DNA of 29,790 bases from a virus. The stretch lies in the UHGV virus genome UHGV-1477313; one strand, 5' to 3'. Positions within the stretch are counted from its first letter, which is position 1. Each line of letters opens with the position of its first letter. The notes under the pieces are model-generated. The model saw nothing but the letters and a program-made list of their open reading frames with translations. It did no database searches and was not told where the DNA came from. Shown here piece by piece: positions 1,541 to 4,489 of this stretch. The position numbers and the translations under genes are program-made.

Positions 1541-4489
1541 TCAATATGTTATGCCATCAAGACTAATGTTACCTGTAGAGAATCCATATATTTTGATTGT
1601 TCCGTTAGTATCTATAACGATATTACCCTGCCCAATCGGATTACCACTTGCATCAAGTTTTGTAACAGAAAATGCCATTTTCCTAACTGGCGAGATGCTC
1701 AACGGAAGGTTGCATACTGTCGTACCGTCGGCGGTTATACCTGTTCCGATGTTAGAGATAGTGCCAGTTAATGCAATTTTACCATCGGGATATGATGTTA
1801 CAGCAGCATGAACCAGTGCAGTTACTGACCAGCCATTTGCCCCCCACACACCTGGCATCCAGTGGTTAATTATAGGATCATTACGTCTACCGAACATATG
1901 TGATGCAATAGCTCTGGCATTTGACAAGCCGAGAAGAATTCTTCCGTATGTGGTCGGGTGAATGTTGTCCATAACAACAGGGTCCTGATTTGTCAGGAGA
2001 TATTCGGCTACGATTGGTCCGAGATCGTCAAGAGAACCAGTATTCAGGGCATTAAGCGGCTGATTAACCTCTTTATTACAAACAGCTACTGTGTTGGCAA
2101 GTATCGCCCTGTAAAGCGCCCCACGCTCGTAATTTGCCGAAGGCTGTCCATAACCAGCAACCCCGGTTAACGTAACACTCTGATCTCTGGTATAGAACTG
2201 TGTAGGCAAAGATACAATGCAGGGAATCCCAAGGTTATTTGCAGTCAGCATCATCTGCTTAACGTTATCTCGTAATGCCTCTCGTCCGGATTGCCTTTGA
2301 ATATCATTCACTCCGATTTGGAAAAGCACTACATCGATATCATCCAACGATGTGGCATTAAATATATTAGCGATATCTCCTGATGCATACCCACTTATTG
2401 CAATTGTCTGCATACGTCCAACGCGAATGCCATGAGTTCCTTCTAGTGCTTGTTGCGCGAACTGTACCCATCCATTTCCCATAGAGGCATCAGTGATTGA
2501 ATCGCCTACAACAGCGATATTTATCGGTTTTGCAGAGCGGTATTGTCGATTTTCGATAATGTATGGATAGAAGACAGACATATACTCACCGCCATCGCCA
2601 AGTGATCCAAATCCTACACGACCAATGATTCTCCCGGTTTGACGAATTGTAACTCGCTCTATCCCGTTAACCAGGATAGTGAATGACTTAAGCGTATCAA
2701 CACGAACGGATGCAATACTGTTTTTTAGCCATTGTGAAGCATGAGTATCAGATCCAGCATATGCAATGCTTTTTGTAGAGCATGCTCCGCCAATTGTTCC
2801 CTCAACTAAAGTACCATGTCCAAAACGATCCTCGTAATATATCCACCGCATATTTTCAGCTTCAACTACAACGCATGGCACACCACCGGTGTTGTCACCC
2901 TCATACATCGACACGAAATATTCAGAGCACGGCTTCACTCTGCTGTATGCAGCAAAAACAAGATTCCCTGTAGGGGCTGGAATGGACACAGCATCGTCAG
3001 AAAGTGACGCCGCTGGGGTATCTGCAACAACACCCATAGGCCAGGAACCAGACAGGAAAGACCACCCAGAAGTAAAGACAGTTAATACTGGCGTTTCTTT
3101 ATCCGGAATATCGCAAAATAACGTTTTATTGTCTGTGTAGTTTGCATTTTTTATGATGGGAGGGGTTGGAGGTGTTCCAGGAACAAGTGGTGTATATTCG
3201 CCTTTTGTAATTCCAACACTTGAACGTAATAAATAACTGGTACTATTACCAGTAAAAAAGAATTTTACAGGTCTGACAAGTTTTACCAATGGTGATTTGA
3301 CAGCTTCATCGCTTGCAGTATTAATTGTCACGCTATCATCTACGTCAAGTATGAATCCATTCCAGTATCCAGCAGGAATCTCTGGTGTAAATACCATACT
3401 AACAATAGTTTTAGAATTAATTCTAATTGTCTTATCTCTTGTTGAAACATACGATTTTAGACTGTCAAGAGCAGCACGGTAGTCATGCCCAGGAACGCCG
3501 CCAAAAGTTGAAATATTTGCAGGTGATACTAAGTCAAACCTTGACCCATCAGGGGTAACAAAGTAACTTCCTCCATCTGTGTCACCTGCAGTACCGATCC
3601 CTGTTCGTATGTAAGTAGCACCACCACCATCATTAAATGAGTATCTACCACCAGTAATGATACAACCGATAACTGAATCAACCATGGAAGACATTGCATC
3701 ATTTGTTGATTTATAAACTTTTGTAGTTTCATATATGGCGCTTCGTAGTGTTGCATCACTTACATATCGCCATGCACCTGGAGCAATACCACCTGTAGTT
3801 TGCGGTGTAGATTCAGGAGGTACTAACTTAGGAAGGGGGCCATCCCAGCGATAATATTCTCCATCACTTTCAAACAATAAAACATCGTTTGGATATGTTA
3901 ATGTATTACCTAATTCAAAAGATCTTCTTATGTTATATCCATAAAGACCATTATTGATGGTATTTATAATTGTATTAACTGTCTGCATAAGGTATTGATA
4001 AATATCATCAACATACCCTTTATTTGCAGCATCATTACGATCAAAAGGTGCAAGCAAGTTTTTAATAAACTGATGTTTTGCATCATAAAAATTAGAAATA
4101 ACAGTTGGTTTTGTCAACGCCAACCTTGTCCATGAATAACACTGTTGGATCAACATTGTCAGTTTATCAAAAGCATCCTCATGAACCTCTGCGAAGAACT
4201 TACCCTGATTGCGAAGATCTGTTTCCTGCGTAACCGGAATTTCTCGCGATATGGAAATCTGATATCCATTTGTCAGAGCGGTTGACAGAATGACGTTACC
4301 TCCAGTGTACCCACCGGCCCCGGTTACCGTGTAATCTGTATCAAGTGCCAATACTGTCAAGTTTTCATCCAGGTCTACAACCTGAACAACCAGATCAGAC
4401 TTCTGAAAAATTCTGAAGGTATAAGGGAATGTCGTCGTGACGCCATTCCCGGTGTATTCGTTATGGTCGACTTCGGTTGAGACCGTCAT
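1541..4489 (-). CDS. Tailspike protein with conserved N-terminal particle-binding domain and an internal SGNH/GDSL hydrolase (esterase) domain
   Basis: 982-aa ORF with GGAG SD before ATG 4489. The N-terminus (MTVSTEVDHNEYTGNGVTTTFPYTF..) looks like podovirus tailspike head-binding domains. Residues about 655-850 (nt about 1940-2527) carry SGNH blocks: GDSIT (Ser664), GVND (726-729), DNIHP (Asp841/His844). Confidence 0.8.
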   Translation of the reverse strand: MTVSTEVDHNEYTGNGVTTTFPYTFRIFQKSDLVVQVVDLDENLTVLALDTDYTVTGAGGYTGGNVILSTALTNGYQISISREIPVTQETDLRNQGKFFAEVHEDAFDKLTMLIQQCYSWTRLALTKPTVISNFYDAKHQFIKNLLAPFDRNDAANKGYVDDIYQYLMQTVNTIINTINNGLYGYNIRRSFELGNTLTYPNDVLLFESDGEYYRWDGPLPKLVPPESTPQTTGGIAPGAWRYVSDATLRSAIYETTKVYKSTNDAMSSMVDSVIGCIITGGRYSFNDGGGATYIRTGIGTAGDTDGGSYFVTPDGSRFDLVSPANISTFGGVPGHDYRAALDSLKSYVSTRDKTIRINSKTIVSMVFTPEIPAGYWNGFILDVDDSVTINTASDEAVKSPLVKLVRPVKFFFTGNSTSYLLRSSVGITKGEYTPLVPGTPPTPPIIKNANYTDNKTLFCDIPDKETPVLTVFTSGWSFLSGSWPMGVVADTPAASLSDDAVSIPAPTGNLVFAAYSRVKPCSEYFVSMYEGDNTGGVPCVVVEAENMRWIYYEDRFGHGTLVEGTIGGACSTKSIAYAGSDTHASQWLKNSIASVRVDTLKSFTILVNGIERVTIRQTGRIIGRVGFGSLGDGGEYMSVFYPYIIENRQYRSAKPINIAVVGDSITDASMGNGWVQFAQQALEGTHGIRVGRMQTIAISGYASGDIANIFNATSLDDIDVVLFQIGVNDIQRQSGREALRDNVKQMMLTANNLGIPCIVSLPTQFYTRDQSVTLTGVAGYGQPSANYERGALYRAILANTVAVCNKEVNQPLNALNTGSLDDLGPIVAEYLLTNQDPVVMDNIHPTTYGRILLGLSNARAIASHMFGRRNDPIINHWMPGVWGANGWSVTALVHAAVTSYPDGKIALTGTISNIGTGITADGTTVCNLPLSISPVRKMAFSVTKLDASGNPIGQGNIVIDTNGTIKIYGFSTGNISLDGITY

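Follow-up and report, generated by a model that had tools for sequence, protein, structure and literature searches.

An SGNH esterase domain on an exchanged receptor-binding cassette in the tailspike of a phiV10-like coliphage

Introduction

Phage receptor-binding proteins that carry an SGNH esterase domain are already established: they have been documented in coliphage G7C (gp63.1), in Pectobacterium and Acinetobacter phages, in Klebsiella prophages and in epsilon15. G7C gp63.1 removes acetyl groups from the O-antigen and leaves the chain uncut; this activity is needed for infection and is thought to be processive (PMC10743462). SGNH fibers and spikes of the Klebsiella, Acinetobacter and Pectobacterium type, found in temperate or lytic phages, are known or proposed deacetylases of surface polysaccharide (PMC13123978, PMC8471582, PMC9569702), and two of those from Klebsiella prophages are active esterases that hydrolyze p-nitrophenyl acetate (PMC13123978). 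For epsilon15, a preprint reports an esterase domain in the tailspike gp20 (bioRxiv 10.64898/2026.07.31.742079). Here, we describe the tailspike encoded by the virus genome UHGV-1477313, a stretch of 29,790 nucleotides (nt) that was analyzed as a whole (the window) and in which a sequence-only reading had noticed an SGNH/GDSL esterase domain, suggesting that the protein deacetylates a host receptor.

Results

The tailspike contains a conserved SGNH esterase domain

The region singled out by the sequence-only reading, nt 1880-2527, corresponds exactly to tailspike residues 655-870. Its motifs were located as claimed: block I contains GDS at residues 662-664 (VVGDSITD), with the nucleophile position Ser664 at nt 2498-2500; block III reads GVND at residues 726-729, with Asn728 at nt 2306-2308; and block V reads DNIH at residues 841-844, with Asp841 at nt 1967-1969 and His844 at nt 1958-1960. 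Block II, which had not been listed, is present as well (IAISGYASG, with the oxyanion-hole Gly700 at nt 2390-2392). The order of these motifs by itself is suggestive and not decisive, given that 287 of 200,000 shuffles of the tailspike protein also contain the ordered pattern GDS...GxND...DxxH.

Profile searches pointed to the same domain and, like the conservation described below, are stronger evidence than the motifs. Pfam Lipase_GDSL_2 (PF13472) matches residues 660-801 with an E-value of 5e-9 and a score of 37.3 bits against a cut-off of 32.9, and PF00657 spans residues 658-849 but falls below its cut-off (20.1 vs 23.6). A profile of the family matched many solved GDSL/SGNH esterases in the PDB. 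The family profile was needed for this match, a single sequence being insufficient: when residues 641-982 were searched alone, the GDSL matches were non-significant only (E 0.3-0.8).

To this can be added the structural model. AlphaFold2, run on residues 261-982 with an alignment of 127 sequences, gave a mean predicted local distance difference test score (pLDDT) of 82.8 and a predicted template modeling score of 0.73, and it modeled residues 655-866 as an alpha/beta/alpha domain. The top Foldseek matches of the model, 9kr1 among them, are two-domain enzymes that combine a beta-sandwich with an SGNH domain: PbeAcXE (7toh), YxiM (2o14), a polyvinyl-alcohol esterase and SsfX3. The sequence-only reading had named structure prediction as a check on the fold, and the model does show an SGNH fold, in agreement with the hidden Markov model (HMM) search and with the conservation described below. 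The protein is placed in the SGNH/GDSL superfamily by the combination of blocks I, II, III and V, a three-layer alpha/beta/alpha flavodoxin-like fold and a score above the threshold of a curated HMM.

An exhaustive search with residues 261-982 against 1.84 billion representatives (clusters at 50% identity) returned 287 relatives at E<=1e-3, of which 215 reach E<=1e-10. Most of the relatives align from about residue 460 through to the C-terminus. A second, word-indexed search with a trimmed profile of 7 sequences brought no additional proteins. With 287 representative clusters in the family, such proteins extend beyond the "few podoviruses" of the earlier remark. Although the 127 aligned sequences include relatives with as little as 22% identity, six columns, and no others, are invariant: S664, G700, N728 and H844 of the S-G-N-H set, D841 as the aspartate of the triad, and a further glycine, G687. 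The SGNH domain is also the best-conserved domain of the module in every homologue compared: a Proteus homologue is 85% identical in this domain, 61% in the preceding jelly-roll and 69% in the C-terminal domain, and in distant homologues the SGNH domain is 33-44% identical compared with 21-30% for the other domains. From this strict conservation together with the modeled fold, we infer that this domain works as a catalytically active serine esterase.

In PHROGs, tail families cover residues 1-166, and residues 184-982 fall to phrog_13362, labeled "unknown function". The RefSeq label of the E. coli relatives is "GDSL-type esterase/lipase family protein", and the BFVD contains viral proteins that match the overall layout (A0A6G5YE40, E 2e-47, TMq 0.58) along with many other phage SGNH tail proteins. 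An exact copy of the tailspike was looked for in the assemblies collection and is not recorded there. No cultured phage of the INPHARED set closely carries the distal module. The nearest matches there, to the Enterobacter phages vB_Ecl_SABI and SonariX and the Aeromonas phages phiA014S and phiA014L, reach 25-27% identity across roughly the C-terminal 40% of the tailspike. The finding of an esterase in this tailspike is sound and not surprising; routine annotation already detects the domain.

Domain organization of the tailspike

The esterase domain lies between two all-beta domains in the distal part of the protein (Table 1). The Tail_spike_N region has PDB matches to the tailspikes 9vvr, 9occ and 4oj5, and residues 190-252 are 40% identical to residues 103-163 of G7C gp63.1 (4qnl). 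The following segment, residues 261-320, is poorly defined in the AlphaFold2 model, and so is the proline-rich linker (pLDDT <50 at model residues 165-192). The jelly-roll varies more than the SGNH domain does in each homologue and is presumed to be the carbohydrate-binding and specificity domain; in Foldseek it also matches lectin-like domains, among them that of botulinum neurotoxin (BoNT Hc). The C-terminal beta-sandwich is common to the whole family and had no match in the Pfam search. It is possibly a second binding domain or a trimerization domain.

Table 1 Features of the tailspike gene and its domains in the window
Feature	Position (nt)	Strand	Tailspike residues	Basis
Tailspike gene	1541..4489	(-)	982 amino acids + stop	One long open reading frame (ORF list)
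Uetakevirus (epsilon15/phiV10) type N-terminal particle-binding adaptor	3995..4489	(-)	1-165	Homology
Tail_spike_N (TSP1/Gp66-type) domain	3755..3928	(-)	188-245	Pfam PF18668, E 1.2e-16
Short alpha/beta stub resembling a beta-helix N-terminal cap and first rungs	3215..3529	(-)	321-425	Family profile and AlphaFold2
Proline-rich linker, modeled as disordered	3134..3214	(-)	426-452	Sequence PLVPGTPPTPPIIKNANYTD
Jelly-roll beta-sandwich (concanavalin/lectin-like)	2540..3112	(-)	460-650	AlphaFold2, all-beta, pLDDT ~90
SGNH/GDSL esterase domain	1892..2527	(-)	655-866	
C-terminal beta-sandwich	1544..1870	(-)	874-982	AlphaFold2, all-beta, pLDDT ~94
Cassette replaced relative to phiV10	1498..4141	(-)	~117 to stop, + 43 nt	blastn

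The distal part is an exchanged cassette on a phiV10-like backbone

The virion genes closely resemble those of known phages: over positions 7443-27443 of the window, identity is 98.4% to phiV10 and 98.3% to the E. coli O157 typing phages 9 and 10. Judged by its genome, the phage is a temperate phiV10/epsilon15-like (Uetakevirus) podovirus of E. coli. Around the tailspike gene, a Bro-N protein is encoded upstream, and genes for two holins and a GH19 endolysin follow downstream, which is also the arrangement in phiV10 and epsilon15.

The N-terminus of the tailspike follows this backbone. Residues 1-165 are 75% identical to residues 1-165 of epsilon15 gp20, no other part of the protein aligning, and the N-terminal residues are likewise ~75% identical to the tailspikes of phiV10, TL-2011b and SPN1S; in the PDB they match residues 1-130 of Dpo31 (E 4e-26). 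At the DNA level, homology to phiV10 within the gene covers positions 4142-4489 only, that is, the first 348 nt (92.7% nt identity). It stops at nt 4142 (residue ~116) and restarts at nt 1497, 44 nt beyond the stop codon; a blastn comparison of the window with the phiV10 locus finds homology at 1-1497 and 4142-5964 only, besides a 59-nt match at 6896-6954. In the same slot, phiV10 holds its own distal tailspike part and the O-acetyltransferase gene oac. Here, where phiV10 has oac, only 113 nt separate the stop codon of the tailspike from the holin gene, and no AT3 or Oac homologue was found in the window (best tblastn match E 0.25 over 29 amino acids).

Elsewhere, the distal module occurs in tail-fiber position, with 71-97% amino acid identity, behind several N-termini. 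The clusters P0001 and P0002 of lysogens with the module have ~100 member sequences each. The module follows an identical epsilon15-type N-terminus in P0001 and E. coli YZLc4-1 (whose gene is 92.7% nt identical), a short siphovirus-type N-terminus adjoining TipJ in E. coli and Proteus, the P22 head-binding domain (PF09008) in Morganella and a T7 tail-fiber N-terminus (PF03906) in a metagenome; a distant member is located in an SU10-like structural module. The earlier suggestion of a swapped receptor-binding cassette behind a conserved N-terminal domain is borne out by the similarity to epsilon15 gp20 over residues 1-165, by the break in DNA homology to phiV10 and by the presence of the module on other N-termini. 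These comparisons give good support to a horizontal acquisition of the distal part, a receptor-binding cassette placed on a conserved adaptor.

Comparison with described esterase tailspikes

The sequence-only reading had likened the protein to G7C gp63.1. The two share Tail_spike_N (PF18668), but gp63.1 also matches Gp63_3rd_G7C (PF21562), G7C_GBD (PF21988) and G7C_C (PF22245), none of which matches the tailspike of the window at E<=1. The order of domains differs as well, being SGNH, galactose-binding-like and C-terminal in gp63.1 and jelly-roll, SGNH and C-terminal sandwich here. The comparison holds as an analogy, and orthology with gp63.1 was rejected on the grounds of the different domain order, the three missing G7C domains and a likeness of the SGNH domains at superfamily level only.

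Epsilon15 gp20 and PhiV10p25 of phiV10 have the same N-terminal adaptor and the same gene position, between Bro-N/gp19-like genes and the lysis cassette. After residue ~165, gp20 is unrelated to the tailspike of the window in BLASTP. Kinship with the esterase domain of epsilon15 itself was also considered and rejected: the alignment is weak and limited to blocks III and V, a likeness at motif level only (hhalign probability 1.4%). The phiV10 tailspike has no Pfam SGNH match and is followed by oac, whereas the tailspike studied here has an SGNH domain and no oac.

The receptor-binding proteins from Klebsiella prophages and from Acinetobacter and Pectobacterium phages (Aristophanes, PP99, Possum) likewise carry an SGNH esterase without a beta-helix. 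No close sequence relationship to them was found, and their hosts and target glycans differ. Bacterial two-domain carbohydrate esterases (PbeAcXE 7TOH/7TOG, YxiM 2O14, CE2/CE3 acetyl-xylan esterases) are 12-19% identical; they are soluble or secreted monomers and not virion proteins.

An acyltransferase gene adjoins the module in temperate relatives

In eight of eight temperate siphovirus-like or P22-like loci, a convergent gene for a 362-residue AT3 acyltransferase (PF01757) lies ~35 nt downstream of the esterase gene (E. coli L002, L003, L007, L008 and L009; Morganella L010; Proteus L013 and L014; e.g. L003:10177-11265). The esterase and AT3 genes of these prophages share a hairpin. The AT3 copies of E. 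coli L73 (WP_016245408.1) and Morganella are 91% identical, a 55%-identical allele is found in two E. coli loci, and the gene is frameshifted in one of the two Proteus loci. Neither the window nor YZLc4-1, the two phiV10-like loci, has the gene, nor does the T7-like locus. We found no discussion of a pairing between esterase receptor-binding proteins and acyltransferases in the literature searched.

One of these prophages, that of E. coli XJ5.2, carries a qnrS1 quinolone-resistance gene and remnants of Tn3 and IS3 transposases directly upstream of its NlpC/P60-TipJ-esterase tail genes (L002:1-4320). The upstream part of this prophage has apparently been replaced.

Proposed function and alternative explanations

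In our assessment, the tailspike is probably a receptor-binding esterase that deacetylates a surface polysaccharide of the host, most likely the O-antigen, without cleaving the backbone. The choice of O-antigen acetyl groups as substrate follows from three considerations: Uetakevirus tailspikes target the O-antigen, the nearest folds are carbohydrate acetyl-esterases, and G7C and Klebsiella provide precedents. By homology, residues 1-165 would attach the tailspike to the tail. The jelly-roll and C-terminal domains, being more variable, are likely the specificity determinants and would bind the O-acetylated surface polysaccharide, most likely O-antigen. In the esterase domain, Ser664 is the putative nucleophile, His844 and Asp841 would complete the triad, and Gly700 and Asn728 would form the oxyanion hole, in keeping with the standard SGNH chemistry summarized in PMC9558356. 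The enzyme would strip O-acetyl groups and leave the backbone uncut, and repeated cycles of binding, hydrolysis and release may bring the virion through the polysaccharide and down to the outer membrane, a movement that has also been proposed for G7C gp63.1. The earlier claim that the protein deacetylates rather than cleaves is in agreement with the lack of a beta-helix domain and with the nearest folds; it is kept here as a probable reading.

Some points weigh against this proposal. The substrate could be capsule, enterobacterial common antigen, another glycan or a non-acetyl ester, and the SGNH domain is no nearer in sequence to that of G7C than to generic bacterial esterases (hhalign probability 4%). 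The model represents a monomer and is of poor quality at residues 261-320 and 426-452. Strictly speaking, residues 256-650 might also harbor a depolymerase of novel fold.

Two alternatives concern the chemistry of the protein. A bifunctional tailspike, in which residues 256-650 (the beta-helix-like stub and the jelly-roll) would add a glycan-cleaving activity to the esterase, would resemble the epsilon15 tailspike, which the preprint cited above describes with a barrel-shaped section as well as an esterase domain. The family profile (positions ~62-180) indeed matches the initial part of the beta-helix in the Sf6 tailspike (2vbk/7sg7, E 5e-14 to 9e-13), and the same region also matches CBA120 TSP3 and polygalacturonases, so the resemblance is to the beginning of beta-helix depolymerases. 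The jelly-roll in turn has a weak Foldseek match to a GH16-type transglycosylase (6ibu, E 5e-6, TMt 0.39). Yet the beta-helix-like part comprises only ~105 residues with ~6 short strands in the model, and Pfam finds no Beta_helix (pectin-lyase) match in this tailspike, unlike in epsilon15 gp20, which does score one. We read residues 321-425 of the model as a remnant cap and not as a depolymerase domain; the segment at nt 3215-3529 looks like the relic of an ancestral beta-helix, a fold that the present protein lacks. A hidden GH16-like catalytic site in the jelly-roll was considered and rejected: its local E-x-E motif (VVVEAEN) shows no conservation among distant members. With no invariant acidic residue outside the SGNH domain in the alignment of 127 sequences, and no conserved E-x-E in the jelly-roll, a second function that cuts glycans is unsupported, and we regard the bifunctional protein as improbable. 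Even less probable is a lipid esterase, be it a lipase, a lysophospholipase or a lipid A deacylase, that would attack the outer membrane or the acyl chains of lipid A and so aid penetration by the tail. Such an activity would be exerted by a domain that sits at the distal end of the tailspike beside a lectin-like jelly-roll, far from the membrane at first contact. The domain comes closest in structure to short-chain and carbohydrate acetyl-esterases and to two-domain xylan esterases that join a domain resembling a carbohydrate-binding module to an SGNH domain, and the characterized phage SGNH receptor-binding proteins are polysaccharide deacetylases (PMC10743462, PMC13123978).

The other alternatives concern the purpose of deacetylation. 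The esterase could mainly destroy or edit the receptor, either freeing progeny from debris or erasing O-acetyl marks that are set by Oac or AT3 and block adsorption, thereby countering lysogenic conversion. This would fit the AT3 gene that follows the module in all eight temperate siphovirus-like and P22-like relatives, as well as the use of O-acetylation by Oac as superinfection immunity on the phiV10 backbone (PMC9558356). Gene linkage is its sole basis, however; the phage of the window has no acyltransferase, and cassettes of a tailspike with a modification gene are also common among non-esterase tailspikes, phiV10 being an example. We hold it to be an improbable account of the main role of the esterase. 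Also unlikely, on the evidence of gene order, is a broader form in which the esterase module and AT3 would constitute a mobile "erase/write" pair acting on one polysaccharide, with the present phage as a phiV10 backbone that has given up its tailspike-oac cassette for the "eraser" alone and is specialized for O-acetylated hosts. If this were true, acetylation of the glycan by a prophage would keep competitors out or label the host, virions with the esterase would be those able to read and strip such marks, and the targets of the phage would possibly include hosts that are already lysogenized and converted.

Neighboring genes

A Shine-Dalgarno sequence, GGAG, is found at nt 4497-4500, 8 nt 5' of the tailspike ATG. 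A scan for promoters and terminators around the tailspike gene gave counts no different from those in shuffled sequence. On the opposite strand lie an ORF of 91 residues in an epsilon15 gp19-like position (4667-4942 (+)) and that of the Bro-N protein (5258-5953 (+)). By eye, the 91-residue product resembles the C-terminal ~55 residues of its Bro-N neighbor ("LMKLLRELDKDGFNVDGPLAELT...DLQTHLDY" vs "LMNLLNQLQDDGHDVSGAAAELT...DIQTHAEY"), which suggests a duplicated domain.

The segment at 5964-7440 is mostly missing from phiV10. It contains a YafO-like toxin ORF at 6198-6674 (+) (PF13957, E 2e-8) and two small ORFs for membrane-protein-like products at 6950-7246 and 7251-7433, both (-), and is possibly a moron or toxin-antitoxin insertion. 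Further along, a tRNA-Arg gene (anticodon TCT) is located at 23848-23924 (+) within the block of virion and packaging genes, as annotated in phiV10-like phages.

Discussion

The tailspike described here would add a temperate coliphage of the epsilon15/phiV10 type to those phages in which the tailspike modifies the glycan of the host and leaves its chain intact. One and the same esterase module has moved among four tail architectures and among three enterobacterial genera. Prophages that carry it are probably overlooked by host-range predictors based on depolymerases, and the host specificity of these carriers likely depends on O-acetylation status besides O-serotype. The linkage with AT3 suggests, in addition, a tie between lysogenic conversion by acetylation and receptor-binding proteins with esterase activity.

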